64,000 nt of DNA from Acinetobacter phage Ab1-TPeters. The position numbers were made by a program, and so were the translations under genes. Shown here piece by piece: positions 13,255-62,824 of the stretch. Location of the stretch: sequence record PP763253.1; one strand, written 5' to 3'. Each line of letters starts with the position of its first letter. The first letter of the stretch is position 1. A model generated the notes under the pieces. That model ran no database searches. It saw only the letters and a program-made list of their open reading frames with translations, and was not told the DNA's origin.

Positions 13255-13326
13255 GCTTAAAAGCTGTTTTGCTGTAGGTAGCGAGAGTTGCCTGCAGCTT
13301 TTTATTTAGCATTTACTGGAGTAAGC

Positions 13327-14484
13327 ATGGCTAAAATATTAATAATCTCAGACAACTATGTGCCGTTGCTGAAAGATAAAGTAATGGGTGGAGCTGAAGC
13401 TACTCTCATGAACCAGTTAGCTATCCTAACTGAAAAAGGACATGAAATCCGAGTTATTGCCCCAGATGATTCAGATATTGATTTGAAGCAATTAGTTCCA
13501 ATTGGGGAATATTCTAAAGTTTGGTATAATGAAATTGGTTCAGGTGCTCCACGTACTTTGAATAAATTAACTAACCAAGCTATTGATAATGAGATGCGGT
13601 TCTTTAAACCAGATCTGGTTTTGAATCACCATAAACAACCCTCTGTAATTAAGCATCTGTCCCTCTACTCTAAGACAGTTCCTGTTGTTTCTCATGTTCA
13701 CAATGCACCTATCTTTGGTATGCTAAGTGTTAATACTAATAAGGCTTATGCTCAACTAGCTCAAGCTAGAGGTAAGAACTGGGGAGTATCTGGCTGGTGT
13801 ACTCGAATGAACAACGGTTTAGTTGACGGTTGTGTTACTGATACATTCATTATGCAGATTGCACTTGAACGTAAGACAGTTAATCTTCCTGAATACTCTG
13901 CAGTTACTGTAGGACGTTTCGTTGATTGGAAGAACTTACATACTGGTATTGAAGCAATTACTTCAGGTAAGCTATCTGGCCGAGTTGTAGGCTATTCAGA
14001 AGACCCTGAAGATGACTACTGGTTAACTAAGATTAAGCCACTAGTGGAAGGCAATGAGAACTGGCTGACTGGGATCACTCATGCTGAGACTATGGACGTG
14101 GTATCTAGAGCAGTTGTATTCCTCCAGACTTCTCATTTAGAAACTTCGTCATGTACTCAATTTGAAGCAGCTCAACACGGAGTGCCTTCAATTGTTGTAA
14201 CTAAACGAAATGGACATGGTTCATTTGAAGACTCGTTCCTCCCAGACTGGGCTTATATTGAATTAGATAACTACCGTAAGGGTGGTGCATTTACCACTGA
14301 CAAGTTTGTTGAATTATATAACTTGTGGTTTAATTCAGAAACTGGCACCAGCTTGCCTGACTATACTCAACTTGAAGTTCGTCAAAAATTGGCTGATTAT
14401 ATCTACGATAACTTTAATAAAGAAGTCTGGTATTCTAAGTTCGTAGCTAAAGTTAATGATTCATTCAAAGGACAAATTCTGTGA
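13327..14484 (+). CDS. GT4-family (GT-B fold) glycosyltransferase
   Basis: The N-terminal 'KILIISDNYVPLLKDKVMGGAEATLMNQLAILTEKGHEIRVIAP' is typical of GT4 donor-binding N-domains. Start chosen at the ATG after 'ACTGGAGTAAGC'. Confidence 0.55.
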   Translation: MAKILIISDNYVPLLKDKVMGGAEATLMNQLAILTEKGHEIRVIAPDDSDIDLKQLVPIGEYSKVWYNEIGSGAPRTLNKLTNQAIDNEMRFFKPDLVLNHHKQPSVIKHLSLYSKTVPVVSHVHNAPIFGMLSVNTNKAYAQLAQARGKNWGVSGWCTRMNNGLVDGCVTDTFIMQIALERKTVNLPEYSAVTVGRFVDWKNLHTGIEAITSGKLSGRVVGYSEDPEDDYWLTKIKPLVEGNENWLTGITHAETMDVVSRAVVFLQTSHLETSSCTQFEAAQHGVPSIVVTKRNGHGSFEDSFLPDWAYIELDNYRKGGAFTTDKFVELYNLWFNSETGTSLPDYTQLEVRQKLADYIYDNFNKEVWYSKFVAKVNDSFKGQIL

Positions 14485-15593
14485 ATATTTTAATTGTTCA
14501 CTCCTACTTCCATGAATTAGGAGACCTAAATAAACCAGCTGGAGGTATTGAAACTCACACTGCTGGTTTATATAAAGCACTTACTCTTCTAGGTCATGAC
14601 GTAACTATTGCTGCAACTAAAGACTCTAAGTTACAAAAAGATATTAAATTCTTACCTATTGACAATAATTGTAAAGACGCTTCTGAAGGACGTTATTCTC
14701 AAGTTCTTGGTTACGAAAAGGTTACTCAGGAAATCTTAGATGGTGAATTTGATGTGGTTTTAAATAATAACCCGTCTATCTCAGCAATGAAGATAATTGA
14801 TACAGCTTGCCAATTCGCTGGAATAAAACACTTCTACTTTATTCATCAAGTTATTGAAGGCATTTCAGCTAAGTCAGCTATTGATGCTTTGAATCGCAGT
14901 CAAGCTGAACTTATTGCGGTTAGTTCGTATGTCGCTTCTCAAGTACGAAGTCAAGGATATACTGCTGGGCGGATTAAGGTTGTTAACTCAACCTTTGCTG
15001 AACCTGTTGAAAGTATTGTTCCATTTAGATATGAGAAGCAAGCAGTAATGTGTTGCCGAGTAGTTAAGATCCGTGAAGTTTTGTTAGCTGTAAAGACCTT
15101 TGGTGAACTACTTCCAGACTGGAACTTAATAGTTATTGGAGAAGGAGTAAATCACCCAGCTGAAATTCCTTACTTTAATCAAGTTAAAGAGGAAGCTGAG
15201 AAATATGAGAACGTAGACTTAGCTGGTCGTTTAAATCAGGATCAAGCTCACTGTATCATTGATCAATCTTCAGTCTTCTTGAATTTATGTCACTTCGAAG
15301 CCTTTGGTCTAGCTGCATTTGAAGCTCAGAAGTTAGGTATTCCAGTGGTTCACTTCTATAAGGGAGTTAAATCTGGAGTTAGTGACTTTATTCGTGATGA
15401 AGGACGTTATCCTAACACTGACACTGGTGTTGCAGTAAATGTTTCAGGTCTTCGTGAAACAGCACGTAAGAATGAGCTGAAAGAAGCCATCCTTAAGGCA
15501 ACTATGCTAGACAAAGGTTACATTAAAAAGCACTTCAGCAAGTACAGTTTGAAGTCATTTGCTGATGAATTAATGAGAATTATAGGAAGTTAA
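14481..15593 (+). CDS. GT4-family glycosyltransferase
   Basis: 'MNILIVHSYF...PAGGIETHTAGLYKAL..GHDVTIAA' at the N-terminus. A C-terminal 'EAFGLAAFEAQKLGIPVV' matches the GT4 E-x7-E motif. Confidence 0.65.
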   Translation: MNILIVHSYFHELGDLNKPAGGIETHTAGLYKALTLLGHDVTIAATKDSKLQKDIKFLPIDNNCKDASEGRYSQVLGYEKVTQEILDGEFDVVLNNNPSISAMKIIDTACQFAGIKHFYFIHQVIEGISAKSAIDALNRSQAELIAVSSYVASQVRSQGYTAGRIKVVNSTFAEPVESIVPFRYEKQAVMCCRVVKIREVLLAVKTFGELLPDWNLIVIGEGVNHPAEIPYFNQVKEEAEKYENVDLAGRLNQDQAHCIIDQSSVFLNLCHFEAFGLAAFEAQKLGIPVVHFYKGVKSGVSDFIRDEGRYPNTDTGVAVNVSGLRETARKNELKEAILKATMLDKGYIKKHFSKYSLKSFADELMRIIGS

Positions 15594-17091: not shown

Positions 17092-17448
17092 ATGACTGGT
17101 CCAATTAATCAATCTAAAGACTTCAAGCAGTCTAATGAAACCAACCTAGTTAATATCGCTGTGAAAGTTGATGAAGCCTCAACTAACGTTGTGGCAGATA
17201 ACATCATTAAAATTCTCAAAGCATCTGATGAAGTGCGTGCTAACGACGAAATCATTCTAGCTGCTCTTCAAACACTGAAAGCTTCAGCTACTATCAGCAA
17301 CTTGACCTTTGATGGTTTCTCTGTTGTTAATGACAACTCCAGAACTACTAATGTTGAAGTTACTGGTGAAGGTGAAGTAGAAGGTCAAGGTATTGTTACT
17401 TCATCTCAAAATTACACTGGAGTTAAGGTATCTAACCCTTATGACTAA
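17092..17448 (+). CDS. hypothetical protein
   Basis: 118 aa. ATG after 'CTTACTGGAGTAAGTAA'. Confidence 0.4.
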   Translation: MTGPINQSKDFKQSNETNLVNIAVKVDEASTNVVADNIIKILKASDEVRANDEIILAALQTLKASATISNLTFDGFSVVNDNSRTTNVEVTGEGEVEGQGIVTSSQNYTGVKVSNPYD

Positions 17449-18398: not shown

Positions 18399-18475
18399 GC
18401 CTCGTTAGCTCAGTTGGATAGAGCATCCGCCTTCTAAGCGGAGGGTCACAGGTTCGAGCCCTGTACGTGGCGCCA
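18399..18475 (+). tRNA. tRNA-Arg (anticodon UCU)
   Basis: Cloverleaf read by eye. Acceptor GCCTCGT/ACGTGGC with one mismatch. D-arm GCTC..GAGC. Anticodon stem TCCGC/GCGGA with loop CTTCTAA. T-arm ACAGG-TTCGAGC-CCTGT. Encoded 3' GCCA. Coordinates +/-2. Confidence 0.8.
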
Positions 18476-18861: not shown

Positions 18862-18936
18862 GGGACTGTAGCTGGAAGGTTCAAGCGTTCGACTCATAAT
18901 CGATTGATCTGGGTTCAATTCCCAGCAGTCCCACCA
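18862..18936 (+). tRNA. tRNA-Met (anticodon CAU; could be Met or lysidine-Ile)
   Basis: Acceptor GGGACTG/CAGTCCC is perfect. Anticodon stem TCGA/TCGA with loop CTCATAA. T-arm CTGGG-TTCAATT-CCCAG. Encoded ACCA. Coordinates +/-2. Confidence 0.75.
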
Positions 18937-20567: not shown

Positions 20568-20817
20568 ACCAGAAGTAGTCTGGAGTAACAAAGATAAAGA
20601 TGTTAAAATTACGATATCTTTAGAGTCTTCAAATGGACGTTTATTCTTTGCCGGAGTTGGTGTAAGGTTAAGTACTGGTAAGGAAATGAGTAGACATTCA
20701 GCTGATGTACTTGAAGATGTAATGAAATGGGCAGTAATGGGAGGAGCTAGATTCCTGATGGATGACGCTATCTTTCTGAAGAAAGCCTACCAAGCAGAAG
20801 TTGAGAAATTAAAATGA
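20560..20817 (+). CDS. hypothetical protein
   Basis: Start placed at the ATG overlapping the upstream stop (track 20545). Confidence 0.4.
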   Translation: MNKPEVVWSNKDKDVKITISLESSNGRLFFAGVGVRLSTGKEMSRHSADVLEDVMKWAVMGGARFLMDDAIFLKKAYQAEVEKLK

Positions 20818-21830
20818 CACGAATAAGTGAATTAGTTAATAAACATAATCAGGTAGTTCCTGTTGAAGAAGCTATCCAGTTCGCTGCTAAGACTGAAGGT
20901 CGATACATGAAATATGTTGAGATGCTTAGTGGTAAGCTAAATTTAGGTGCTTTCTTAGGTCTAGTAAACATCAGTAAAGGTTATAAATTACCCCGCTATG
21001 TAGGCTTTACTTATGAGAAAGGCGTGATTGTAGCTAAGTGGACTAAGAAGAACTCTGGACATCTAGACCAGTTCATCCGAGTTAAGCTATATAAACGACC
21101 TAAACCAGGTGATTTCTCAATGACAGAGGAAGGTGTTGTTTCATTAAACGGAACTGAATCTGAGAATATTAGTAAGTTAAACACAGCTAAACAGATTGTG
21201 GTTAGTCTGGATCGAGAGCTTAAATTAGCTACTCCTGAAGAAGTGGAAAAAGACACTAAAGAGATTGAAGAACCCACTAAACTCAGCTCAGGAAAGACAA
21301 AGGTCATTGATCGAATAGAGAAAGTAAGTTTCGGAACAAAGTTTCATCTAAGCAAAAACGTTGAGCTATCTAGTGTTTCAGCTTACGTGAACAAAATTAT
21401 GAAAGAAAAGACTGGGTCTGCTGTTTCAGCTGCACCTAATTTTATTCTTGTAGAAAATCCTAATTTAGTAGAATTAGCTAAAAAAGTTATTGAAAGCTAC
21501 GACCCTAAAGCAGTAGTTAAAGCTCCTGAAGTGAAGAAAGCAGCTAAACCTAGCTCAAGTGCGAGATCTTCAGACAAGTTCGGTTTTGTTAAGGGTTCTG
21601 GTAAAGTTCCTCAACTCAAAGTAGGTACTCCAATCACAGTAAGAATGCCTGGTGGAACTAGATCAGGAACTATCACTGAAGAATGGAATATTGAATTTAG
21701 TGATAATAAAAACGATTTCACTGTGTCATATGAAAACAAAGATGGCGGTTGGTGGGCTTACGTTAGTGATATCGTATCTATTAATTACAAACCAGCCTCG
21801 AGTTATCCTGAATTAAATAAATTAAGATAA
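20814..21830 (+). CDS. hypothetical protein with conserved N-terminal leader 'MTRISELV' (leader-family member)
   Basis: 338 aa. The N-terminus resembles the MTRIGKILEINESL family below. Confidence 0.5.
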   Translation: MTRISELVNKHNQVVPVEEAIQFAAKTEGRYMKYVEMLSGKLNLGAFLGLVNISKGYKLPRYVGFTYEKGVIVAKWTKKNSGHLDQFIRVKLYKRPKPGDFSMTEEGVVSLNGTESENISKLNTAKQIVVSLDRELKLATPEEVEKDTKEIEEPTKLSSGKTKVIDRIEKVSFGTKFHLSKNVELSSVSAYVNKIMKEKTGSAVSAAPNFILVENPNLVELAKKVIESYDPKAVVKAPEVKKAAKPSSSARSSDKFGFVKGSGKVPQLKVGTPITVRMPGGTRSGTITEEWNIEFSDNKNDFTVSYENKDGGWWAYVSDIVSINYKPASSYPELNKLR

Positions 21831-21831
21831 T

Positions 21832-21872
21832 CCTGTTTCTTAAAAACTTCATAAGCCTGTTAAATTGTACAG
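21832..21872 (+). promoter_or_regulatory. motif-1 bipartite element CCTGTTTCTTAA-N11-CCTGTTAAATTGTACAGG
   Basis: Immediately after the stop of 20814..21830; 28 nt upstream of 21900. Confidence 0.5.
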
Positions 21873-21899
21873 GTTAAACCCAGGTAAAGGTAAATTAAA

Positions 21900-22202
21900 A
21901 TGACACGTATCGGTAAATTATTAGAAATTAACGAGTCTCTGAAAGTCGAAGAATCTAAAGTTTCTCCTGCTTGGACGACTACAGATAGACGAGAAATCTC
22001 GAAAGAAAAATTTGATGGTCTACTTTGGGAAATGACTTCCTCATTAAGAGGAAAAAGAGATCCATACCCTAGTGTAAATTCTTGGTCTTCAAAAGGAATA
22101 ACTGGAAATCAAAGATATGTTCGAAATTCTGGGTTTAGAACAATTGAATCTCAACACCACCTAGAAAGTGGACAAACTAAATATTTTATATTTAATAAAT
22201 AA
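21900..22202 (+). CDS. small protein with conserved N-terminal leader 'MTRIGKLLEINESL'
   Basis: 100 aa. Preceded by a motif-1 bipartite element. Confidence 0.55.
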   Translation: MTRIGKLLEINESLKVEESKVSPAWTTTDRREISKEKFDGLLWEMTSSLRGKRDPYPSVNSWSSKGITGNQRYVRNSGFRTIESQHHLESGQTKYFIFNK

Positions 22203-22214
22203 AGGTAAATCAAA

Positions 22215-22601
22215 ATGACACGTATTTCTCAAATTCTTGATATGAAAGCTAGGCTTGGTGATGTTAATGAATCTAAAAAGTCAGCTACTGTAAAGGAAGT
22301 TGAAGAATTTATTGGAAGAATTTCTAACAGCAGCCAAGTTGATGTTACTTTTGAAGGCGCAGGTAAATCACATGCTGTCTTTACTCCAGCTACAAGCTTC
22401 GATTTAAAAGGTACTTGGATCTCATTGTTAAAATTAGTTGGTTCAGAAAATGCTAAGTTTGAACCAACTAAAGAGACTAAAGAAGGGAAAGTATCAACTT
22501 GCACGTTTACTTTATCAGATGGTTCATTAAAAGCAACTCGACTTTTAACAAAACGTGGAGTAAAAGAGTTTGTCGCTAGCATAGAACTCATCCTTAAATA
22601 A
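22215..22601 (+). CDS. small protein with leader 'MTRISQILDMKARLGDVNES'
   Basis: 128-aa family member. Confidence 0.5.
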   Translation: MTRISQILDMKARLGDVNESKKSATVKEVEEFIGRISNSSQVDVTFEGAGKSHAVFTPATSFDLKGTWISLLKLVGSENAKFEPTKETKEGKVSTCTFTLSDGSLKATRLLTKRGVKEFVASIELILK

Positions 22602-22602
22602 T

Positions 22603-22655
22603 CCTGTTCCTTAAAATTTGCTGGAGCCTGTTTGTGTAACGGGCTTCGGTTCGCC
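22603..22655 (+). promoter_or_regulatory. motif-1 variant (CCTGTTCCTTAA-N12-CCTGTTTGTGTAA + hairpin GGGCTTCGGTTCGCC)
   Basis: Between 22215..22601 and the beta-prime C-terminal gene. Confidence 0.45.
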
Positions 22656-22683
22656 TAATATAATATCTCTGGAGTAATAAAGT

Positions 22684-24207
22684 ATGAATCCACATGTATC
22701 AAAGGATATGAATGAAATCCACCGCCTATTGGATATGAAGATTCTTAAATTGGGTTCTGCAGTTAAATTTAAAATGGAAGATGGCTGGGTTGATACTACA
22801 GCTGGACGTCTTCTAGTTTGGGAAATCTCTGGTTATCTTCCAGATGACTTCTTGAATAAATCAACAATTAAGAAGTTGATTACACATATCAACAGAAACT
22901 ACCCTGCAGCTGAAGCACTTCGTAGATTGAAGCGAGTTCAACAAATCGGATTTGAAACATCTACACAGAGTGGCATCTCACTTTGCTATGATGACTTTAA
23001 ATTCGACTTTGGAATTGACTTTAAAGAAGTTGAAGGTCAATTATCTAAGATGGAAAAAGATGAGCGTGTTGAGTATGCAGATAAGATTATCAATGAATGC
23101 ACAGCACGTTGGTGGAATGAGGTTGATAAGTCTAATCCTCTTCGTAAGATGGGCGTATCTGGAGCACGTGTAACTGATACCCAAGTTCGTCAAATGATTG
23201 TAGCTAAGGGCATCCTTGGTTCAATGGATGGCAGTATTGCTGATTATCCTATTATGGAATCACTTACAACTGGATTGGGAGTTAATAATTACTTCCAGAC
23301 ATGTGGCCCAGCTCGACGTGGTCTAGCTGATAACTTCTTCGTAGTTCCAGCGTCAGGTTACTTTGCTCGTCAGTTAGTTACTGTTGCACGTGACCTTAAA
23401 ATGGTTGAACATGATTGTGAGACAGTTGAGACGATTTACGTTCCAATTGAATTAGCTCGAGGTCGACATGAGTTAGGTAATCCGAATATCTTGACTAAGA
23501 AAGATATTGAGGAACGATCTGGTGAAATGATTAAGATGCGATCTCCAATTACATGTGAGTCAGCTCTAGGTGGAGTCTGTCAAAAATGTGCTGGTTTAGA
23601 TCCAGCTACTGAAGAGTACTGGCGTATTGGAATGGGTTTAGGTACAGCTTCAGGACAACATGTATCAGAACCTACCACTCAGTTAGGTTTACGTGGTAAG
23701 CACTTGTCAGGTGGTGTGACTCTAGCTGGATTGAAGAAGAATGTAAGTAACGTTCTTGCAGATACATTGAAGACACTAGGTGGTAAGGGTACTCACTTGA
23801 TTGGACCTCAACTAAGTAGCGCTAAAGGATTCCATGAGTATTACGCTGAAGAGAAAGATTGGGTCAAAGCTACAACTAATATTATGTTAGTGGTAACTGA
23901 CATCTTTAAGAATGCTGGAACGAACATCGCTTCAGTTCACTTTGAGATGATTCTTCGTGGTTGTACTGATATCGTCCAGCTAGCTGATGGAACTTCAGGT
24001 CTACGTTCTTTGGGTGCTGAGGGTCGAGTTATGCCGATTCATGTACACGGATATGGTCGTAAGGTTCCTAGCTGGTTGAAGCGACTAGGTTACGGTTACG
24101 TAAATGAGACCATTAAGAAAGCGGTTACTACAATGGAGCCGTCACTTGGTGGATATACAGAGCAAATTATTATGGCTCAATTCGAACACTTAGAAGAAGC
24201 TGAATAA
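22684..24207 (+). CDS. multisubunit RNA polymerase beta-prime subunit, C-terminal half (split gene)
   Basis: 'TTAGRLLVWEI..LP' aligns to the beta-prime region around E. coli residue 800. 'ASGQHVSEPTTQLGLRGKHLSGG' matches the trigger-loop/G-loop signature '[21 protein letters not shown]'. No N-terminal zinc finger or NADFDGD motif, so this is a C-terminal fragment encoded on its own. Confidence 0.7.
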   Translation: MNPHVSKDMNEIHRLLDMKILKLGSAVKFKMEDGWVDTTAGRLLVWEISGYLPDDFLNKSTIKKLITHINRNYPAAEALRRLKRVQQIGFETSTQSGISLCYDDFKFDFGIDFKEVEGQLSKMEKDERVEYADKIINECTARWWNEVDKSNPLRKMGVSGARVTDTQVRQMIVAKGILGSMDGSIADYPIMESLTTGLGVNNYFQTCGPARRGLADNFFVVPASGYFARQLVTVARDLKMVEHDCETVETIYVPIELARGRHELGNPNILTKKDIEERSGEMIKMRSPITCESALGGVCQKCAGLDPATEEYWRIGMGLGTASGQHVSEPTTQLGLRGKHLSGGVTLAGLKKNVSNVLADTLKTLGGKGTHLIGPQLSSAKGFHEYYAEEKDWVKATTNIMLVVTDIFKNAGTNIASVHFEMILRGCTDIVQLADGTSGLRSLGAEGRVMPIHVHGYGRKVPSWLKRLGYGYVNETIKKAVTTMEPSLGGYTEQIIMAQFEHLEEAE

Positions 24208-24216
24208 GCTTCTTCA

Positions 24217-24426
24217 TTGGAGAATAAAATGACTACACGCATTGGTAAAATTTTAGAAATTAATGAATCTTTGTCTAAAGTTTCTGAAGCTGAAAAAGGC
24301 TTTAGTCCGGAACTAAAACAAAAACTAGCTAAACTAAGAGAGAAATTTAATAAAGGTGAAATCTCTGTTGACTACTATAAGGCTATGTCTGAAAGAGCTA
24401 TTAAAGCAGAGCAAGAATCTAAATAA
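24217..24426 (+). CDS. small protein with leader 'MTTRIGKILEINESL'
   Basis: 69-aa family member. Confidence 0.5.
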   Translation: MENKMTTRIGKILEINESLSKVSEAEKGFSPELKQKLAKLREKFNKGEISVDYYKAMSERAIKAEQESK

Positions 24427-24427
24427 T

Positions 24428-24481
24428 CCTGTTTCTTAACAAATCCTAAAACCTGTTTGGTTGTGGGCGGGAGTTCCCCGC
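24428..24481 (+). promoter_or_regulatory. motif-1 (CCTGTTTCTTAA-N12-CCTGTTTGGTTGT + hairpin GCGGGAGTTCCCCGC)
   Basis: Upstream of 24486. Confidence 0.5.
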
Positions 24482-24485
24482 TGTT

Positions 24486-24968
24486 TTGTTAAGGAAATTT
24501 ATTATGACTACAATGGCTACAGCTTTAAACCAGATCGCTAATATTGCTTCAGCTTCACCTTGGGATGAAGCTGCAATCCTTAAGAGCAAGATGTCTACAG
24601 ATCAGTTTACATTGCTTGATCTTAAGGATCACATCGATAACTTCCTTGTTAAGGCAACTAAGACTGAGACATGTGAACAGCGTGTTGAGAAAATGAAACT
24701 GGTTGCGTTCAAGTATATCTCTATCCCAATGGGCTCATACTACGGTGATCTCTGGTATGGTTTGAAGAAGTCTGACGTTCCAATGCTTCAGGCTCAAATC
24801 GCTTCAGGTCACAATATGTTAATAACCCCAGCTGACTTGGTTAAGTTAATTGAGATTCAGAAGAAGCGTGGTTATCAGTTTGTATTGAATCTGGAAGTGA
24901 ATCCAGCTGTAGCTAAACACACTGGAGTTGTAAATGTGCAACTTCGTAATATAACTGTGAATGGGTAA
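24486..24968 (+). CDS. hypothetical protein
   Basis: 160 aa. Preceded by a motif-1 element plus a GC hairpin. Confidence 0.5.
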   Translation: MLRKFIMTTMATALNQIANIASASPWDEAAILKSKMSTDQFTLLDLKDHIDNFLVKATKTETCEQRVEKMKLVAFKYISIPMGSYYGDLWYGLKKSDVPMLQAQIASGHNMLITPADLVKLIEIQKKRGYQFVLNLEVNPAVAKHTGVVNVQLRNITVNG

Positions 24969-24973
24969 TCCAG

Positions 24974-25315
24974 ATGACTACGAGAATTGGTAAATTATTA
25001 AGCAGTAAACAAGCTCTTTCAGAAGTTACTGAATCATCTAAATTTGGTGATTGGCCAGATAATTTCAAGAAAGCTGACGCTCCATTTAATAAAATTAAAC
25101 AAGGTGATACCTTAGTATTTAACAAAGATGAAGAAACAGGCTACACTCCTGAAGGGATAGCTGTGTTTATGTCAGTAAACAATCACATTCTTATTAAACC
25201 TAAAACTAAAGCACCTGGTTCTTTACATCGTGATTTAGTAAGTATGGATGATGATAAATTGTACCTTATTCCTGGTTGGGAATTAGTTAAAGTAAACGGA
25301 AAACCTTTTAAATAA
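24974..25315 (+). CDS. small protein with leader 'MTTRIGKLLSSKQALSEVTES'
   Basis: 113-aa family member. Confidence 0.5.
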   Translation: MTTRIGKLLSSKQALSEVTESSKFGDWPDNFKKADAPFNKIKQGDTLVFNKDEETGYTPEGIAVFMSVNNHILIKPKTKAPGSLHRDLVSMDDDKLYLIPGWELVKVNGKPFK

Positions 25316-25327
25316 AGTAGGTGAAGT

Positions 25328-25606
25328 ATGAGCACACGTATTGGTAAAATCTTAGAAATTAACGAATCACTATCTAATGTAAATGAATCTACAACAAAAC
25401 CTGTAGCTTACCAAAGAGATGGTTGGGGTTATGCTATGATCAAAGAGGGTGGGTCTACTTATGTAGTTGCCCGTAAATCAGCTAGCCGTGATTATATGAA
25501 AGAAACTTTTGGTAGTGCAACTACAGCTAAGGAGCTATTTAAGATAGCTGAAACTCAGATGAGTAAAGGCTTCTTACTATATAAAGATGGAAAAAGAGTT
25601 GGTTAA
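25328..25606 (+). CDS. small protein with leader 'MSTRIGKILEINESL'
   Basis: 92-aa family member. Confidence 0.5.
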   Translation: MSTRIGKILEINESLSNVNESTTKPVAYQRDGWGYAMIKEGGSTYVVARKSASRDYMKETFGSATTAKELFKIAETQMSKGFLLYKDGKRVG

Positions 25607-25717: not shown

Positions 25718-26938
25718 ATGAAAACTATTATCAACGGCAATGTAATCTCTGTCAATGAAGCATTTACCGACCGTATGACACAGTACATTGACGATCGAGC
25801 TATTGATTATTTACGTAAAAACTTAGAAGACTCTAAGGCTACAGGTAAGCAATCAAAGTATGAATATTATTCAAACTTAGCAGATCGAACAAATGACCCT
25901 GTAATGAGAGTCTTCTATGAATTTGCTATGCTTCTTCCAGAAGAGCAAGCAATGAATTTAGCACGTGAGTATTATCAACGTGAAATTCGTTCAGGTACTA
26001 TTTCATATGATCAATATGAAGCAGAAAATGATGAAGGTGAATCAACTGGCGGTATGTTGAATACTAAGTTCTCAGTAAGCGCTGGTTTACTTGATAAAGG
26101 TATTTTCTCATCTATCGCTGCAGGTGAACGAGCTACTCCAGCACGTCAAGTAGAAGTTAACGATTTATTTGATAAGTTATTCTTTGAATATACTACTCGC
26201 CCAGCACGTTTAGTTCTTATTGCACGTTTACTTACAGGTTCTTCAACTGGACGAGTACGTAAGCATGACTCTGGTAAACTAGATTTATCTCGAGTAATGC
26301 ATCGCCTTCCTAAAGAGTACGCTGAAGTTATGGCTCAATATGAGCATTTCCTTGATTCAGGTATTCAAGAAGATGAGATTAGTGCTAAGGATCTTATCGT
26401 AGGTTGGAAACCGACTCAAGAACATCCAATCGAAATTAAGGGTATTTGGAACCACACAGCATGGCGTGATGGTCAACGTGATCTAGAAATTGCTATTCAC
26501 GATATGGTTGGTGACGGTTACGAAACTGTAGCTCAGATCCGTAAATTCTTTAACGTTAATGAAGAACTTATTACGTTTGAAGGAGGTGATCTGGATGAGG
26601 TTAATGAGTCAGCTCAAGAAGCTAACCGAATTAATAAAGCTATCGAGTTTATTCTTGCAGGTCAACCAGCTAAATATTCTGATGTAGTTCGTGCACTTAA
26701 GTTTGTTATTGCTGATAACTTAGCAACTAAATCACCAATGCTTAAGTCTAAATTATTTAAGAATCGTAAACCTAAATACGTTCTTGAAGCTATGTTGAAA
26801 ATGCTTAAGTCTGGGCGAGATGAACAAATCAAACAGGTTCAATTCGCTATTCTAGCTCCAGCATTGACACGTAACGTTAAAGCTAAGAAGATGATGATGA
26901 ACGTTTTGAATGCAAAAGGTCGTCAAGTATTAAAATAA
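25718..26938 (+). CDS. hypothetical protein
   Basis: About 406 aa from the internal ATG (track 25685). Followed by a GGGAGC..GCTCCC hairpin. Confidence 0.45.
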   Translation: MKTIINGNVISVNEAFTDRMTQYIDDRAIDYLRKNLEDSKATGKQSKYEYYSNLADRTNDPVMRVFYEFAMLLPEEQAMNLAREYYQREIRSGTISYDQYEAENDEGESTGGMLNTKFSVSAGLLDKGIFSSIAAGERATPARQVEVNDLFDKLFFEYTTRPARLVLIARLLTGSSTGRVRKHDSGKLDLSRVMHRLPKEYAEVMAQYEHFLDSGIQEDEISAKDLIVGWKPTQEHPIEIKGIWNHTAWRDGQRDLEIAIHDMVGDGYETVAQIRKFFNVNEELITFEGGDLDEVNESAQEANRINKAIEFILAGQPAKYSDVVRALKFVIADNLATKSPMLKSKLFKNRKPKYVLEAMLKMLKSGRDEQIKQVQFAILAPALTRNVKAKKMMMNVLNAKGRQVLK

Positions 26939-41292: not shown

Positions 41293-41606
41293 ACAAAGAA
41301 ATAACAGTAGACTTAAGAGTTGATGAAATTGATTCTTTCGGCAGCATCACTTCTCGTTTAGGTCAAACAGTAATTCAGTCAACACATCGCATAGCTAAGC
41401 TATATGGATCTAAATTCAGTGACGAAATGAATGATCTGAAGAAGCTCTACACTGACCATGCTTGTGATCTAGCTAAAGAGATTATTAAAGGAACTGGAAA
41501 TACTATCACTGTGATGGTTACTGAATCAACAGTTGACAGTTTCAATAAAGTTCTTAAATCAACTAGTCGTGGTATCTTAATAACTAATGAGGTCAAAAAG
41601 AAATGA
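41289..41606 (+). CDS. hypothetical protein
   Basis: 105-aa ORF. Confidence 0.35.
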   Translation: MNKEITVDLRVDEIDSFGSITSRLGQTVIQSTHRIAKLYGSKFSDEMNDLKKLYTDHACDLAKEIIKGTGNTITVMVTESTVDSFNKVLKSTSRGILITNEVKKK

Positions 41607-42163
41607 CTGAGATCAAGGGACAACCTACGCTGTCACCTAAAGGTAGTAATATCAATGAAGCCGCAGTAAAGTCTGTTATTAAAGCAGTTGAGAAAAGTTT
41701 ATATGAATCAACTTTAGTTGGCGACTTTAGTCACAAGCCTTTTAATCCAATGGACTTAAAAACTAACTTAGGTCTTCAAGGTCAATACGTTCTTGAAGAA
41801 AACTCCTATGATCCTGTTTCTGGCTTATTAAAAATAGATTTCAAAGGTAAGCCTACAGCTGATGATTTAATAACTTTAGCTAAAGCTGGAATTATCGACA
41901 GCTCTAACGCACTATCTCAATTCAAGCAGTTATTGCCTAAGCAAGTAGGTTTGTCTTTCTCAATTGAGGCTAAAGGTGAAGTTACTGAAGATGAGAACGG
42001 AAGTACTGTATTCTTGAATAAGGGAGCTGAGCCTCAGGACTTCTTTAACGACTTAGAGACGACTAAGAAATTTAAGTCTATTCTAGATCGATGGAATAAT
42101 GGAATGCCAGTAACTAAAAAGGAATTTGACGATCTTTATAAATCGTATAAGGAAGAATTCTAA
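41603..42163 (+). CDS. hypothetical protein
   Basis: 186-aa ORF. Confidence 0.4.
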   Translation: MTEIKGQPTLSPKGSNINEAAVKSVIKAVEKSLYESTLVGDFSHKPFNPMDLKTNLGLQGQYVLEENSYDPVSGLLKIDFKGKPTADDLITLAKAGIIDSSNALSQFKQLLPKQVGLSFSIEAKGEVTEDENGSTVFLNKGAEPQDFFNDLETTKKFKSILDRWNNGMPVTKKEFDDLYKSYKEEF

Positions 42164-53179: not shown

Positions 53180-54229
53180 ATGAAATCTTTTGCAGTGCAA
53201 AGTGCCAATCAAGCATTATATGAGTTGACTCAAGAATGTAAGAATGAAGGCTTTAGTTATTCAACAGAAACTTCTCATAATTCAACACCAGTTGTTTCAC
53301 TAGGTCTAACTCACTTAGAGCTTACTAATCCACTAAATCGCTTTATTAATATTAAAGGTCGAAATACTAACATCTTTGGTATTATTGGTGAGTGCATCTG
53401 GGTTCTATCTGGTTCAGCTGAACTAGGTGATTGGATGAAAACTTTAGTTCCTCGATCACCAGATTATGCAGATAATGGTGATACATGGCGTGCAGGTTAT
53501 GGCGAACGAATCTATTACAATGGTCAGATCAACTCTGTAATTGACAGATTAAAACGAGATAATAAAACTCGTCAAGCAGTTCTCTCAATTTATGACCCTA
53601 GCCGTGACACAGATGCTGGAATTAGTGCGGAAATCGGTTCTATTAATACCAAAGATCACGTTTGTAATATGTCAATGGCGTTTAAGATTCGTGATGGCAA
53701 GCTAAACATGACTCTGTTCAACCGCAGTAATGATATCTACTGGGGTTTGTTAAATGTTAACGTTCCAGAATTCACTCTTATTCAAGAGATCATTGCTGCT
53801 TACGTTGGTGTTGAAGTCGGTTCATATAATATTATCTCAGATGATTGTCATATGTATCAAATGCCAGTCATCATGAAACAAGCAGAAGCTGTAATTGAAA
53901 ATTATAACTGGATTGATTCGACAGGTCATGACGATCGTAAGTTGGAATTAAGCCCTAAGATTAATAATATTAATCTTTTGAGAAAGTTCTGTGAGCGAAT
54001 TATCTTTGAATCTGAGATTACTAACGAGAATTCAATTGAGGATTATGATCGTCGAATTCTTTCTATTATTGAAGAGTTTAAAGTTACTGGCAAATTAGCA
54101 GATTACGTTAAAATGGCTTGTTACTATTATGCTTCAACTCTAGGTGTAATTTACCCACGCCTTCGTGATTTAGAATCGTCTTATCTGGAAGAGTTAATCG
54201 ATAACTCTTACTTCAATCCCACGAAGTAA
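53180..54229 (+). CDS. divergent thymidylate-synthase-fold enzyme (dNMP C5-methylase/hydroxymethylase family)
   Basis: 'CNMSMAFKIRDGKLNMTLFNRSNDIYWGLLNVNVPEFTLIQEII..DDCHMY' aligns block-for-block with ThyA '[50 protein letters not shown]'. The catalytic Cys and the R-S pair are conserved, and an Asn sits near the ThyA N177 position. The canonical CH..QFYV block is not conserved. Confidence 0.65.
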   Translation: MKSFAVQSANQALYELTQECKNEGFSYSTETSHNSTPVVSLGLTHLELTNPLNRFINIKGRNTNIFGIIGECIWVLSGSAELGDWMKTLVPRSPDYADNGDTWRAGYGERIYYNGQINSVIDRLKRDNKTRQAVLSIYDPSRDTDAGISAEIGSINTKDHVCNMSMAFKIRDGKLNMTLFNRSNDIYWGLLNVNVPEFTLIQEIIAAYVGVEVGSYNIISDDCHMYQMPVIMKQAEAVIENYNWIDSTGHDDRKLELSPKINNINLLRKFCERIIFESEITNENSIEDYDRRILSIIEEFKVTGKLADYVKMACYYYASTLGVIYPRLRDLESSYLEELIDNSYFNPTK

Positions 54230-58778: not shown

Positions 58779-61700
58779 ATGACCAAATTTTTGACTGACT
58801 TGACTTTACAAGATCAGGCTGTTTTTATTCTGTTATCTCAAACCAACAACTCAAGAGCATTTGAGAATGGTTATGCTGCTGACTTCTTAAATTTTGTTAC
58901 TATTAACTCTCCTCATCGAATTGGTTATGTTGAAATTACCAATGAAAATGAAGAGCATGTTCTTAATCAAGAAGAAATTTCTAAGTTGAAAGATTTAGTT
59001 GGAAACCGTAAGGTTATTCTTTTAGGTAAGAACACAGTAAAAGCAATTGCTGGTGAGTTGATTAACAACCGAGTTCGTTATTTATCTTTGTTGGATATGT
59101 CATACTTGACTTGTGCTAACTTAGGTAAAGTAGCGATTTGTGGTCACCCAATGTCTTACAAAGACGTCTTTAAAGGAAATGTTGATGCTCAACAGAAACT
59201 TATTCTACGTGTTGATGAGTTAATTCAGCCACGTGCTAAAGAATATGAAGTTGAAATTGTAGCTCCCTCACTGGACGATCTTGAAGACATCTTAAATCTA
59301 TGTGCCAATCAACCAGCCATTGGTTACGACATTGAAGCAAACGATTTAGATATTTGGGCAGCTCACTGGGAAAAGAACTTATTTAGTCTGTCAGTGTTCG
59401 AATCAGAATCTAAACTTATGTCATTCTGGTTTAACTGGCGTGAATTTACTTCGGATCATAAGAGATTATTTGAAAATTTCTTAGATAAGAATCAGTCTAA
59501 AATTTGGACTTACAACTGTACATATGAAATCCAAGCAGCTTGGAGAGTCTTCGGTAAACGTTACTTATTTCAAGATGCTTTGATCTTAACTACTATGGAT
59601 GCTAACCGTGGTGATCTTAAGACTAACGCTCGTAAGTATTTGAAATGTGATTTCTGGGAAGATGAGCTAGCGAGTATTCGTGATGTTTATGAAGCCTTTT
59701 TCAAATTATTCTTAGATAAAGGTAAAAAGAATTCAATACATGATGAGTTCAAAGCTTTTGTTAAATCAGATCAATTCCAGAATTTAGATAATCTTCGTGA
59801 GTTTCTGATTTCTAAGGGTAGAAAACCAGAATGGATGAATGATATTAATGATTTAGCAGTTGCTTTAGGTGAAGATGAAGTAGTCAAAGGTATCTCTGAA
59901 TTTCCATATCAGTGGTCAGCAGTTCCATTCGACATTTTAGGTAAATACTGTTGTTACGATTCAGCTTACACTCTGCCAATTGCAGCTAAACTGTACGGTA
60001 AGTATGAGAAAGGATATAAACATTACATCAAACACCCTTGGTTAGCTTGTATCTTTGAAGCATGGGGATGTGGTTGGGATGAATCTAAAGCTAAGGAAGT
60101 TGAGAAAGATTATTTACGTTTGATGAATGAATCTCTAAGTGAATTGATCTTAAATCTTCAACCTAAGTTAGGTCTTCGAGCTCTAGATGTTAAACCGATT
60201 CTTCAGTGGAAATTACCACATGAGGCTACTTCATACACAGCTACAGGTAAAGAACGTAAACATAAGGTGTTGTCTGAGTACGATCGTCATGGTTGGATTA
60301 AAGGTATTTACAATCCTGGTTCAAACACGGCTGATGCTCGAGCTGTATTCTGGGATGTTTACTTAACAGAACGAGTTGAGTTAGCAACATTTGCATATAC
60401 TCTTGTCAATGATCTTCGATTCAGAGGAATCTGGGAGAAGTTACTGATTAAGATGATTGAAATGACAGAGTTCAAGTCTAAAGATGAAAGTAAGACTGAG
60501 AACGAATTCTTAACTGAATATGGTGCAGCTCAAGTTCTTGAAATGTTGTCAGTATTCTTAGAAAATCCAAATTTAACTGATCGTGAGACAGTTAAGATCT
60601 TGGCTTCTAGTTTCACTGAGACGAATAAGACCTATAAAGACAATACTGGACGTAACGCTAAAGAAGTAATGGCAGCTCAGTATGAGATTCAATGTCAATT
60701 CTTTGGTGTTGACATTGATGATGAATCTACTTGGACTCCTGAATTCAAGATTCTATTCTTACTTCAGAAATATAAGAAAGTAGCGAAAGCTCTGTCTACT
60801 TATGTTAATGGTAAGTTAGGTCGAGGATGTGTATGGTTGTCTAAAGTATTTCCAGATCGTCCTCCAGTTCGATTGAAACCTTATCATGAGGTTGAGGAAG
60901 GATATAAACTTAAACTTGATGAGAAGTTAATTGCATTCTATGACTTTAATAGTTTGTCTGCATCAACTCACCGTTGGGGATCTGGATTCCATACTATTAG
61001 CCCAGGTGTAGCTATCCGCAGTGCTTTAGTTCCGTACTACAGCAATCAGATCTGGACTCATATTGACTTTAGTCAGGCTGAGTTGGTGATGTTGGCATTC
61101 TTCAGTCAAGACCCTAACATGATTAAAGTATTCATGGAAGGTGGAGATATGCACAGATATGTAGCTAGTCTAGTGTATCAGAAGAAGCCTGAGGATGTTA
61201 CTTCAGAAGAACGTCGTGTAGCTAAGACAGTATCATTTGGTATTGTTTACGGTAAGGGTATTGAGAACTTAGCTCTAGAAATCACTGGAGGTGATGTTCC
61301 TCGTGCTCAAGCAATTTTCGATGCTTTCTTCGTGTCATTCCCTGGAATCAAGAAATGGATGGATGAGCGTAAGACTCAAGGTCGTGAAACAGGTAAGGTG
61401 ACTAATCTGTTTGGTGCATTGATTGAGGTGGAAGATGGCTTCAGTAAAGGTAACGCTATTGATCGTCACTCAGTAAACTACCCAATCCAGTCTTCATCTT
61501 CAATGGTTGCTGGTGGTTCAATGTACGACTTGTGTTCTACAGTTGACCAACAAGGAATCTTTGGAACTGGAGTTGGATTCGTGCACGATGCATTAGATCA
61601 TACAGTTGATATCGACAATCTGGTTAACTTCTTAGTTTATTCTAAGAAAGTGATGCAGGATCAAGTTTATGAAGAACTTGGTACTCCGATGAAGATTGAC

Positions 61701-61988
61701 CAAGAGATTGGTGCGACAGCTCTAGACTTATGTGAGCTGAAGAGCTTCACTGAACTTGAAAATGGTTTAGAAATCATTCTCGGAGGTGACGAAGAGGCTG
61801 TAAATAAACTGGTTGACAAGTTTAGAGTAGAGAGTGCTAAGTACGTTATTGACAACACTGAAATCATTGACAGTTCAGACTCATATACATCTTGGGAAGG
61901 ATTGTTTACTGAGAAAGGTGCATATAGTTCAGATCGTGGTCAAACGTTAAAGAAAGTTAAGACTAAAGTGACTCTTCGCTATAGTTAA
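58779..61988 (+). CDS. family A DNA polymerase (Pol I-like, with 3'-5' exonuclease domain)
   Basis: Exo I 'YDIEAN'. Motif A 'IDFSQAELVMLAFFS' (DYSQIELR). Motif B 'RRVAKTVSFGIVYGKG' (RxxxKxxxFGxxYG). Motif C 'VHDAL' (VHDE). Preceded by motif 2; a hairpin terminator follows. Confidence 0.8.
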   Translation: MTKFLTDLTLQDQAVFILLSQTNNSRAFENGYAADFLNFVTINSPHRIGYVEITNENEEHVLNQEEISKLKDLVGNRKVILLGKNTVKAIAGELINNRVRYLSLLDMSYLTCANLGKVAICGHPMSYKDVFKGNVDAQQKLILRVDELIQPRAKEYEVEIVAPSLDDLEDILNLCANQPAIGYDIEANDLDIWAAHWEKNLFSLSVFESESKLMSFWFNWREFTSDHKRLFENFLDKNQSKIWTYNCTYEIQAAWRVFGKRYLFQDALILTTMDANRGDLKTNARKYLKCDFWEDELASIRDVYEAFFKLFLDKGKKNSIHDEFKAFVKSDQFQNLDNLREFLISKGRKPEWMNDINDLAVALGEDEVVKGISEFPYQWSAVPFDILGKYCCYDSAYTLPIAAKLYGKYEKGYKHYIKHPWLACIFEAWGCGWDESKAKEVEKDYLRLMNESLSELILNLQPKLGLRALDVKPILQWKLPHEATSYTATGKERKHKVLSEYDRHGWIKGIYNPGSNTADARAVFWDVYLTERVELATFAYTLVNDLRFRGIWEKLLIKMIEMTEFKSKDESKTENEFLTEYGAAQVLEMLSVFLENPNLTDRETVKILASSFTETNKTYKDNTGRNAKEVMAAQYEIQCQFFGVDIDDESTWTPEFKILFLLQKYKKVAKALSTYVNGKLGRGCVWLSKVFPDRPPVRLKPYHEVEEGYKLKLDEKLIAFYDFNSLSASTHRWGSGFHTISPGVAIRSALVPYYSNQIWTHIDFSQAELVMLAFFSQDPNMIKVFMEGGDMHRYVASLVYQKKPEDVTSEERRVAKTVSFGIVYGKGIENLALEITGGDVPRAQAIFDAFFVSFPGIKKWMDERKTQGRETGKVTNLFGALIEVEDGFSKGNAIDRHSVNYPIQSSSSMVAGGSMYDLCSTVDQQGIFGTGVGFVHDALDHTVDIDNLVNFLVYSKKVMQDQVYEELGTPMKIDQEIGATALDLCELKSFTELENGLEIILGGDEEAVNKLVDKFRVESAKYVIDNTEIIDSSDSYTSWEGLFTEKGAYSSDRGQTLKKVKTKVTLRYS

Positions 61989-62179: not shown

Positions 62180-62242
62180 AGGGGTTATATTTTCTTTTAT
62201 GATCTTGCTATTGTGTTCTTAATTTTTGTTCGGGTATTTGTA

Positions 62243-62824
62243 ATGTCTTCAGAAAGGCAATCTACTTTAGCTCTATCCTTAAATGAGTTAGAGTTTATTA
62301 ATCCAGATGCATACTTAAATGCGTCTAATTCCACCTCCTTACGGGATTTCGATTATTGGCATTCGCGTGCAACTAACAACGCGAGCTATACCGAGAACCT
62401 TATTCAGGAGGAGTATCGTCGTCAGTATCCGAATTACGATCGCGTAACTCAGATGCATTCCTCGTCAACTGAGGTAACACCTGGAATGAACGGGGGTTCA
62501 GTCCAGAGTTTAATTTCAAGTGCAATACCTGAAATTGATCCTCAGAAAGAGTCAGAGTTTTTGATTCTAGTTCAATCTATCTTGAATAGGTTTGATTTCT
62601 TCGAAAATGAGCAGAAATTGAATCTTATTAAGGTATTTGGTTTTACTATCAATGCCGCTGGCTTATCGACACATCATCCAGACCTAGTTGAGCATGTCTC
62701 TCACTTTAGAGAAATTAAGTTTCCTAATATAGCTGATTTACATCGGTATGTTGGATCACGAACTAAAGCAGATGAAGCACGTAAACTTTTCAAAAACATT
62801 GCAGCAGAATATTTCTTAGGGTAA
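62243..62824 (+). CDS. hypothetical protein
   Basis: Track 62213 with a non-ATG start. An ATG at about 62243 is preceded by both motif-2-like and motif-1 elements. Confidence 0.4.
   Translation: MSSERQSTLALSLNELEFINPDAYLNASNSTSLRDFDYWHSRATNNASYTENLIQEEYRRQYPNYDRVTQMHSSSTEVTPGMNGGSVQSLISSAIPEIDPQKESEFLILVQSILNRFDFFENEQKLNLIKVFGFTINAAGLSTHHPDLVEHVSHFREIKFPNIADLHRYVGSRTKADEARKLFKNIAAEYFLG

Follow-up and report, generated by a model that had tools for sequence, protein, structure and literature searches.

A stretch of 64,000 nucleotides from Acinetobacter phage Ab1-TPeters (PP763253.1), hereafter the window, harbors six plus-strand genes within 4.8 kb that begin with variants of the same short peptide, the leader, and continue into otherwise unrelated proteins, the cargos. 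Judging from these sequences and by analogy with phage T4, the leader is probably a cleavable propeptide that targets proteins to the prohead, and the six genes would then encode proteins of the head interior. The observations that carry this reading are the leader family itself, selection acting at the level of the peptide, a glutamate motif aligned across the leaders, the turnover of the cargos, and the concentration of the same motif in the capsid, scaffold and head-module proteins of related phages.

A six-frame scan of the whole window, together with the listing of its open reading frames (ORFs), returned exactly six peptides of the form M[ST]?TRI, at positions 20814, 21900, 22215, 24229, 24974 and 25328, every one of them the start of an ORF. 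Block shuffles of the window (200 trials) yielded 0.82 such matches on average and 4 at most, as compared with the 6 observed. As an independent test, a hidden Markov model (HMM) was built solely from the nine leaders of the related phage 3098 (see below) and run against the 1044 candidate N-termini of the window; it picked up five of the six leader genes, with E values from 4e-11 to 2e-6. A chance pattern as the source of the shared starts is excluded by the shuffles and by this HMM, and the common N-terminal leader that an initial annotation of the sequence had attributed to six genes is hence confirmed. Five of the starts given there also stand, while the fourth gene begins at ATG 24229 and not at TTG 24217: GGAG is found 7 nt upstream of this ATG, and an independent gene call on a Logan contig (P0100/L004) is likewise 65 amino acids (aa) long. 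With this correction the family ranges from 65 to 338 aa, instead of 69 to 338 aa. The remainder of the window and the 50 kb of phage 3098 that were inspected yielded no further member. The six genes are as follows (a slash marks a predicted cut; pI, isoelectric point; E values are those of the HMM built from phage 3098).

20814..21830, plus strand: leader gene 1, 338 aa; putative leader, residues 1-19, MTRISELVNKHNQVVPVEE/A (20814-20870); mature part 35 kDa, pI 9.5

21900..22202, plus strand: leader gene 2, 100 aa; predicted leader MTRIGKLLEINE/SLKVEE/S (21900-21953); mature part 9.5 kDa, pI 10.0; E = 2.7e-7

22215..22601, plus strand: leader gene 3, 128 aa; predicted leader MTRISQILDMKARLGDVNE/S (22215-22271); mature part 11.8 kDa, pI 9.3; E = 1.9e-6

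24229..24426, plus strand: leader gene 4, 65 aa; predicted leader MTTRIGKILEINE/SLSKVSE/A (24229-24288); mature part 5.2 kDa, pI 9.4; E = 2e-8

24974..25315, plus strand: leader gene 5, 113 aa; predicted leader MTTRIGKLLSSKQALSEVTE/S (24974-25033); mature part 10.5 kDa, pI 7.9; E = 1.2e-7

25328..25606, plus strand: leader gene 6, 92 aa; predicted leader MSTRIGKILEINE/SLSNVNE/S (25328-25387); mature part 8.0 kDa, pI 9.7; E = 4e-11

Alignment of 15 leaders, six from the window and nine from phage 3098, gave a consensus of 16-22 residues that reads M-[TS]-(T)-R-I-x-x-[IL]-L-(5-9 residues)-[VI]-[NDSTE]-E; in 14 of the 15 sequences the next residue is S or A. The Arg and the Glu are invariant, and the Ile and Val nearly so (R4, E20, I5 and V18 when the 20-residue leaders are numbered). 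The aligned [VI]-x-E sits at residues ~16-22, and this distal [VI]-x-E/[SA] is the likely cleavage site that we predict. The initial annotation had proposed a site of the hydrophobic-x-Glu type, which the alignment bears out, but the ILE, LSE and ISE tripeptides it pointed to do not form the conserved site; INE/S, for its part, is present in no more than three window genes out of six (21900, 24229 and 25328), as an additional site further upstream. Throughout the window ORFs (20.9 k residues) 12 instances of the strict motif [VI][ND]E[SA] were counted, 8 of them within the first 26 residues of an ORF. Two window ORFs with another type of leader and no family match also display it near their N-terminus (VDEA at residue 26 of ORF 17092-17448 and INEA at residue 17 of ORF 41603-42163); these may be protease substrates or chance occurrences.

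The leaders are amphiphilic to polar, with a charged residue every 3-4 positions. A Sec, Tat or lipoprotein signal peptide was considered and rejected, as they were found to be devoid of a hydrophobic core of at least 10 residues, of an RR motif and of Cys. Comparison of codons confirmed that the leaders are encoded differently, as had been noted initially: in pairs that have an identical 13-residue core, codons differ at 3-6 of the 12-13 identical residues (23-46%), Arg being written as CGA, CGT, CGC or AGA and Ile as ATA, ATC or ATT. A DNA alignment across the 15 gene starts showed no conservation of the upstream DNA, and synonymous variation is free. Since identical residues are written in different codons and the DNA upstream is not conserved, selection acts on the peptide and not on the DNA. 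Conservation at the nucleotide but not the amino-acid level, which the initial annotation had named as the sign of a shared translational enhancer, was looked for, and codons were found to vary instead, on which ground an RNA-level element was rejected.

The cargos were then compared with each other and with public databases. An all-against-all blastp of the 15 mature parts gave no significant pair (best E = 0.2), in agreement with the earlier statement that the remainder of each protein is unrelated. The six window cargos are hydrophilic and basic, with a pI of 7.9-10.0 (above 9 in 5 of 6, a value exceeded by 20% of the other window genes) and a Lys content of 8.5-20%; five of them measure 5-12 kDa and one 35 kDa. 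Pfam and PHROG scans of the six cargos revealed nothing above noise, and tblastn of the six concatenated cargos against 50,697 phage records returned no match at E <= 1. A search of a 5.8-billion-protein database with the concatenated full-length proteins gave none at E <= 10, a weak negative in that the query's own proteins were missed too, and a 40-residue leader profile run against the same database returned only the window's own 65-aa protein, which, recall being incomplete, is also a weak negative. The structure prediction suggested in the initial annotation was carried out with single-sequence AlphaFold2 on the 338-aa and 128-aa members, and both models are unusable for want of confidence (predicted local distance difference test, pLDDT, of 33 and 45, respectively).

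The relatives of the phage were identified through the gene for the beta' subunit of RNA polymerase, a fragment of which lies inside the cluster. Identity of beta' is highest with Acinetobacter phage vB_AbaM_3098 (78.5%), followed by the E. coli phages EP_H11 and IME392 (49%) and Ralstonia phage RP13 (39%). At the nucleotide level, megablast of the region against the 50,697 phage records gave no match, and no relatives were found in IMG/VR and JGI metagenome contigs by means of the beta' protein and alignment or of a degenerate leader DNA pattern. The record of phage 3098 (PV081573.1, L003; 55.6 kb, labelled complete and circular) is collinear with part of the window. Its syntenic locus around beta' harbors nine leader ORFs, among them MTTRIGKILEINESLSEVNES, MTTRIEQILIKQQGLKSVNES, MSRIKDIKEKQSGLVSVDES and MTRIATLLAKTKSVNEA. 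None of the window cargos has a counterpart in phage 3098; the flanking genes are 49-78% identical (406-aa protein, 73%; 152-aa gene, 49%; beta', 78%). The search of related phages for the same leader on different cargos, which the initial annotation had recommended, was thus positive, with nine leader genes in phage 3098 and none of the window cargos among them. The 55.6-kb record contains no head, portal or terminase genes and is therefore probably an incomplete assembly, which fits the sequencing trouble of phages with hypermodified thymidine; IME392, RP13, YerA41 and Carin-5 belong to a group with such DNA that is hard to sequence, and in the case of Carin-5 the DNA was amplified with the phage's own DNA polymerase (PMC12686479). 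In the paper describing phage 3098, the only databases against which spectra were searched were those of the host proteome and of contaminants (PMC12656882).

The family is nearly missing from public databases. A third lineage was encountered when the 338-aa member was compared by phmmer with 1.84 billion representative proteins, which yielded the protein itself and one weak match, P0102 (E = 9e-5, over the C-terminal 100 aa). The latter is encoded on a 1.5-kb contig, L015 (Logan SRR25904983, 211-1468), and begins MTSLIGQMLDKFEHNEK. The next gene on this contig begins MTTQVGQLLNKFEGKED, so that two adjacent genes share a leader variant (MTSLIGQMLDKFEHNE and MTTQVGQLLNKFEGKE), which suggests, from this short sequence, that the same tandem layout exists in a third lineage.

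The complete genomes among the relatives allowed us to ask where else the motif is found. The head module of IME392 consists of terminase, portal, an 88-aa ORF, a 478-aa ORF and the capsid protein. The latter scores above the threshold of Pfam Gp23 (26.5 vs 24.4 bits), and many of its homologues have a precomputed PF07068 assignment. The 478-aa ORF matches phrog_207 (head maturation protease; E = 9.5e-16); matches to Peptidase_S77 (T4 gp21) are weak, collinear and sub-threshold in three diverged homologues, this ORF included (E = 0.012-0.042). Its C-terminal, coiled-coil half contains at least 10 [VIL][NDE]E[SA] sites, compared with 32 in all ORFs of the genome together (55 k residues), which is what one would expect if the protease cuts up its scaffold. 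The same motif-rich protease/scaffold pattern is present on the metagenomic contigs L013 and L014, the former of which also has a 97-aa ORF with an analogous leader. In IME392 the capsid protein begins MTKQNIVLSNVDE/A and shows further VNE/S sites at residues 43 and 69, while the 88-aa ORF, located between portal and protease, begins MNKSELLMQAVDE/S. Public assemblies provided 94 homologues of the capsid protein, about 50 of which begin with a 9-15-residue peptide ending in [IV]-[ND]-E-[SA], as in MNTKIKTLAEINESS (RP13), MSTKIKTLAQINESS and MTNRVKSLAEINESS; the motif falls at residues ~11-14, and a conserved second site, R-[IV]-N-E/S, near residue 45. A phmmer search of PDB sequences with the RP13 capsid protein gave no match. 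In RP13 (LC554890, L009-L011) at least 8 ORFs (65, 66, 75, 77, 79, 80, 131 and 143) have leaders of 9-16 residues ending in [IV]-[NS]-E-[SA]; ORF65, 66, 75, 77, 79 and 80 lie in the head module and ORF143 directly upstream of beta'. The adjacent RP13 pairs ORF65/66 and ORF79/80 share leader variants, and all leader ORFs of this phage are annotated as hypothetical.

The leaders also resemble the N-terminus of the capsid protein in sequence, MSTRIGKILEINESL and MSTKIKTLAQINESS having 8 of 15 residues in common when aligned by eye. In an ungapped BLOSUM62 ranking of 7355 candidate N-termini from four genomes against the capsid N-termini, the four EINES leaders took ranks 1, 2, 4 and 6 (scores 33-40; background 11.7 +/- 5.2); rank 1 belongs to leader gene 6 (25328). 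By this ranking the resemblance is beyond chance for the leaders as a group, although the peptide compared is short. A bolder version of our reading, which we regard as rather doubtful, holds that a portable address, which removes itself, imitates the first ~13 residues of the phage's own major capsid protein and in this manner loads 6-9 unrelated small, basic and fast-evolving proteins per genome into the head for co-injection, in a clade of phages with hypermodified DNA and their own RNA polymerase genes that is made up of the relatives of IME392, RP13 and 3098. Were this true, the cargos would constitute a reservoir of new inhibitors of those host defences that sense modified DNA, and foreign proteins could be packaged into therapeutic Acinetobacter phages by means of the leader, which would serve as a tag without further design.

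The internal proteins of T4, like its Alt protein, have a capsid-targeting sequence (CTS) of 10-19 residues, which attaches them to the scaffolding core and is subsequently cleaved off by gp21. The internal proteins themselves are basic, measure 8-20 kDa, occur in hundreds of copies and leave the head together with the DNA; among T-even phages they are diverse and, apart from the CTS, not conserved. One of them, IPI*, inhibits a restriction enzyme whose action depends on DNA modification (PMC3012670, PMC9026906 for all of these statements). The prohead proteases of T4, phiKZ, 201phi2-1 and SPN3US cut after Glu in x-X-E, with a P3 residue that is lineage-specific (PMC5694885). The cluster described here fits the description of the T4 internal proteins on every point that can be addressed from sequence, which is why we favour a cleavable prohead-targeting propeptide. 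Both parts of the initial proposal are supported in this respect: the likeness of the leader to a signal cleaved by the prohead protease, by the aligned Glu motif and its presence on the capsid protein, the protease/scaffold and the head-module ORFs of relatives, and the parallel with the T4 internal proteins, by cargos that are small, basic and wholly replaced between two close phages.

The course of events that we envisage is the following. The phage belongs to a clade that possesses a capsid protein of the T4 gp23 type and a fused head-maturation protease and scaffold. Precursors would be made late in infection, and their leader, M-[TS]-(T)-R-I-x-x-[IL]-L-..., would dock them onto the scaffolding core during prohead assembly. 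The prohead protease would then cut after the conserved Glu of [VI]-[NDSTE]-E/[SA], and in some members also upstream at INE/S, and thereby free a small, mostly basic mature protein (5-12 kDa, in one case 35 kDa) inside the head, where it would stay with the DNA until being ejected into the next host. With only the address constrained, cargo genes could be freely swapped, giving rise to a hypervariable cassette. The cargos would most plausibly be early-acting host-takeover or anti-defence proteins, as is T4 IPI*, a natural need given the hypermodified thymidine DNA of the clade. That they are in fact injected anti-defence or takeover effectors we put forward tentatively, as somewhat less than an even prospect, considering how the cargos turn over, what is known from T4 and that the DNA of the clade is modified.

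Several points weigh against a prohead-targeting leader and have to be set beside the above. Docking, cleavage, packaging, ejection and function are all inferred, and for packaging and cleavage this holds throughout the clade. The cluster does not lie in a head module and is surrounded by genes for an RNA polymerase, for tail-fibre-like proteins and for DNA metabolism. The head module of the phage is located outside the window and outside the 55.6-kb record of phage 3098, and the leader was accordingly compared with the head proteins of relatives: the upstream Logan contig contains ribonucleotide reductase and helicase genes only, a lookup through the gene at the downstream end of the window (62213-62824) gave no record, and the capsid homologues P0002, P0005 and P0058 belong to other samples. 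Run on the window leaders, an HMM of the capsid N-terminus gave insignificant scores (5-7 bits, from the INES part alone), and we therefore claim no homology, only a top-ranking resemblance; in the ungapped ranking, two non-genic ORF starts equal the leaders in score. The 20814 gene (MTRISELVNKHNQVVPVEEA) was missed by the HMM built from phage 3098 and is the most divergent member, with a weak leader. The S77 assignment of the protease remains below the Pfam threshold, and a profile of its N-terminal domain found no match among PDB sequences. Finally, no cargo has a recognisable fold or family, so that the effector role is a guess.

Among the other explanations, the one that survives best accepts that the cargos enter the prohead and are cut there but takes them for assembly parts (core, scaffold-accessory or DNA-condensing proteins like T4 gp67, gp68 and IPIII), their variability resulting from weak constraint. 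Most of the leader-bearing small ORFs of RP13 and IME392 do lie inside the head module, the basic, Lys-rich cargos would fit DNA binding in the head, and T4 IPIII affects head assembly (PMC9026906). We nevertheless consider such a role unlikely, as the total replacement of cargos between phages with 78% identical beta' is hard to reconcile with it, gene numbers differ (six versus nine), and the window cluster stands outside any head module.

It is more doubtful still that the leader has no relation to the capsid and serves to dock proteins onto some partner, such as the RNA polymerase whose gene the cluster encloses, or to mark them for degradation or processing by another protease, its likeness to the capsid protein being coincidental. 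The recurrence of the terminal [VI]-[ND]-E-[SA] in protease/scaffold proteins, capsid N-termini and head-module ORFs across the clade speaks against this, as do the absence of a leader from the beta' fragment itself and the position of the leaders at the top of the 7355 N-termini ranked for capsid likeness. Its attraction comes from the arrangement of the genes, since the cluster surrounds beta' in both phages and the leader-bearing ORF143 of RP13 directly precedes beta', and from the lack of significance of the capsid HMM. As for a common start without function as a peptide, left over from tandem duplication or recombination at a common 5' cassette or acting as an RNA-level element of translation initiation, the tandem, co-oriented genes and the capacity of short conserved 5' coding regions to enhance translation leave it a very slim chance against the different synonymous codons at 23-46% of identical residues, the unconserved upstream sequence, the retention of the leader in two phages while all cargos were replaced, and the related but different leader on adjacent genes of the third lineage (L015).

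If the leader is a prohead-targeting propeptide, the closest known system is that of the T4 CTS, IPI-III and Alt. The two are alike in that (i) a short propeptide (10-19 residues in T4, 16-22 here) stands on otherwise unrelated small basic proteins, (ii) it ends in hydrophobic-x-Glu, the site type of prohead proteases, and (iii) the cargo genes are not conserved among related phages and the capsid protein, here known from relatives, is of the gp23 type. They differ in that, here, (i) P3 is V or I, P2 is N or D and P1' is S or A, several members having two tandem sites, (ii) the leader resembles the extreme N-terminus of the capsid protein of the clade, (iii) 6-9 genes form one tandem array around an RNA polymerase gene, and (iv) the clade, with hypermodified thymidine and its own multisubunit RNA polymerase, is not part of the Tevenvirinae, packaging being a prediction here. 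The unaligned CTS of T4 IPIII (MKTYQEFIAE) and MTTRIGKILEINES have nothing evident in common but the x-E at their ends. We therefore regard the leader as a functional analogue of the T4 sequence and not as a member of the same sequence family.

The giant phages phiKZ, 201phi2-1 and SPN3US (protease family S80) offer a second comparison, as they have several head-internal proteins that are cut after Glu by a T4-related prohead protease and encode multisubunit RNA polymerases, and as the SPN3US paralogues gp53 and gp54 have an identical 15-residue N-terminus interpreted as CTS-like (PMC5694885). In contrast, their propeptides are mostly longer than 100 residues, with A, S or G at P3, and their cargos form large paralogous families, as opposed to the unrelated 5-12 kDa proteins found here. 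Unlike them, too, the present phage is smaller (its relatives measure 111-171 kb) and belongs to a clade whose capsid protein is a member of the gp23 Pfam family. The Dar proteins of phage P1 differ from the present cargos in being large and in being incorporated hierarchically via protein-protein interactions, and to our knowledge they have no common short cleavable leader. The Dar proteins are comparable as anti-restriction proteins that are put into the head at morphogenesis and delivered with the DNA (PMC9024508, PMC12810830).

What is new with respect to T4 is an unrelated, longer and sometimes double-site leader, the [VI]-[ND]-E/[SA] motif, and a hypervariable array of 6-9 genes around an RNA polymerase gene. 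That a tag can address proteins to the capsid is a principle familiar from T4 since the 1990s, and in the literature searched we found no description of such a system for this clade. If our reading is true, the combination of an address tag and interchangeable injected proteins would extend from T4 to a distant, poorly sequenced group whose members in part have heavily modified DNA, and [VI]-[ND]-E/[SA] would be the specificity of the prohead protease of this group. Some 15 orphan proteins, and more in RP13-like phages, would then become candidate injected host-takeover or anti-defence factors, and a simple rule would be at hand for annotating virion-internal proteins in genomes where almost everything is labelled 'hypothetical'. 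The tag of 16-22 residues could also be used for loading cargo into therapeutic Acinetobacter phages; phage 3098 is already part of a cocktail (PMC12656882).

Aside from the leader genes, the following features were recorded in and around the cluster.

22684..24207, plus strand: C-terminal fragment of beta' of a split multisubunit RNA polymerase (Pfam RNA_pol_Rpb1_5, E = 2e-14); inside the cluster, no leader

24510..24968, plus strand: conserved 152-aa gene within the cluster; N-terminus MTTMATALNQIANIASASPWDEA; no canonical leader; 49% identical to a gene of phage 3098; no PHROG match

25718..26938, plus strand: conserved 406-aa protein; N-terminal peptide MKTIINGNVISVNE/A; homologues in phage 3098 (73%), IME392 (32%) and RP13 (ORF87, 28%)

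21828..21843, 22599-22614 and 24424-24439, plus strand: TAATCCTGTTTCTTAA, an intergenic motif, in one copy immediately behind each of leader genes 1, 3 and 4, the first overlapping the stop codon

21828, 22599, 24424, 36920, 44707, 45124, 47505, 48884, 51631 and 62139, plus strand: bipartite element

18399-18475 and 18862-18936: tRNA-Arg(TCT) and tRNA-Met(CAT), in a gene-poor stretch upstream of the cluster

Subunits of the RNA polymerase are particle-associated only in a distant relative, YerA41 (PMC7354516). The conserved 152-aa gene (24510-24968) begins MTTMATALNQIANIASASPWDE/A, and its counterpart in phage 3098 reads ...ATASPWDE/V at the corresponding place; this N-terminus might be a degenerate or alternative leader. 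Further downstream, the first 14 residues of the 406-aa protein end in SVNE/A, and the similarity to its homologues starts right after this motif, each homologue having its own short N-terminal peptide that ends in VNE/A, VDE/A, IVE/S or ISE/A. In IME392 and RP13 these homologues adjoin the DNA polymerase gene. No Pfam or PHROG family was found for the 406-aa protein, which, in view of these N-termini, is likely an additional protease substrate or packaged protein.

The bipartite intergenic element consists of (TAA)TCCTGTTTCTTAA, often placed over the stop codon, and of a second CCTGTT ~25 nt further downstream, in most cases with a GC-rich hairpin behind it; one copy lacks the second CCTGTT and reads CCAGTT. 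Its 10 copies, against 2.15 expected, are all on the coding (plus) strand. It is absent from phage 3098, IME392 and RP13 and corresponds to no Rfam family. This element may be a phage-specific terminator/promoter cassette; its copies behind leader genes 1, 3 and 4 are a possible transcription signal punctuating the cluster.

The window as a whole has 37% G+C and nearly all of its genes on one strand. These include genes for topoisomerase II subunits, two glycosyltransferases, an SMC-like ATPase, an NAD-dependent DNA ligase, a thymidylate-synthase homologue, a primase, a helicase and a family-A DNA polymerase. Directly downstream of the leader cluster lie genes for tail-fibre-like proteins, as the initial annotation had indicated, while the lysis genes that it placed there depend on one weak spanin-like match. 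The two GT4-family glycosyltransferases, the thymidylate-synthase homologue and the family-A DNA polymerase (13288-15593, 53180-54229, 58779-61988) make up a set that fits phages with sugar-hypermodified thymidine (PMC12686479).

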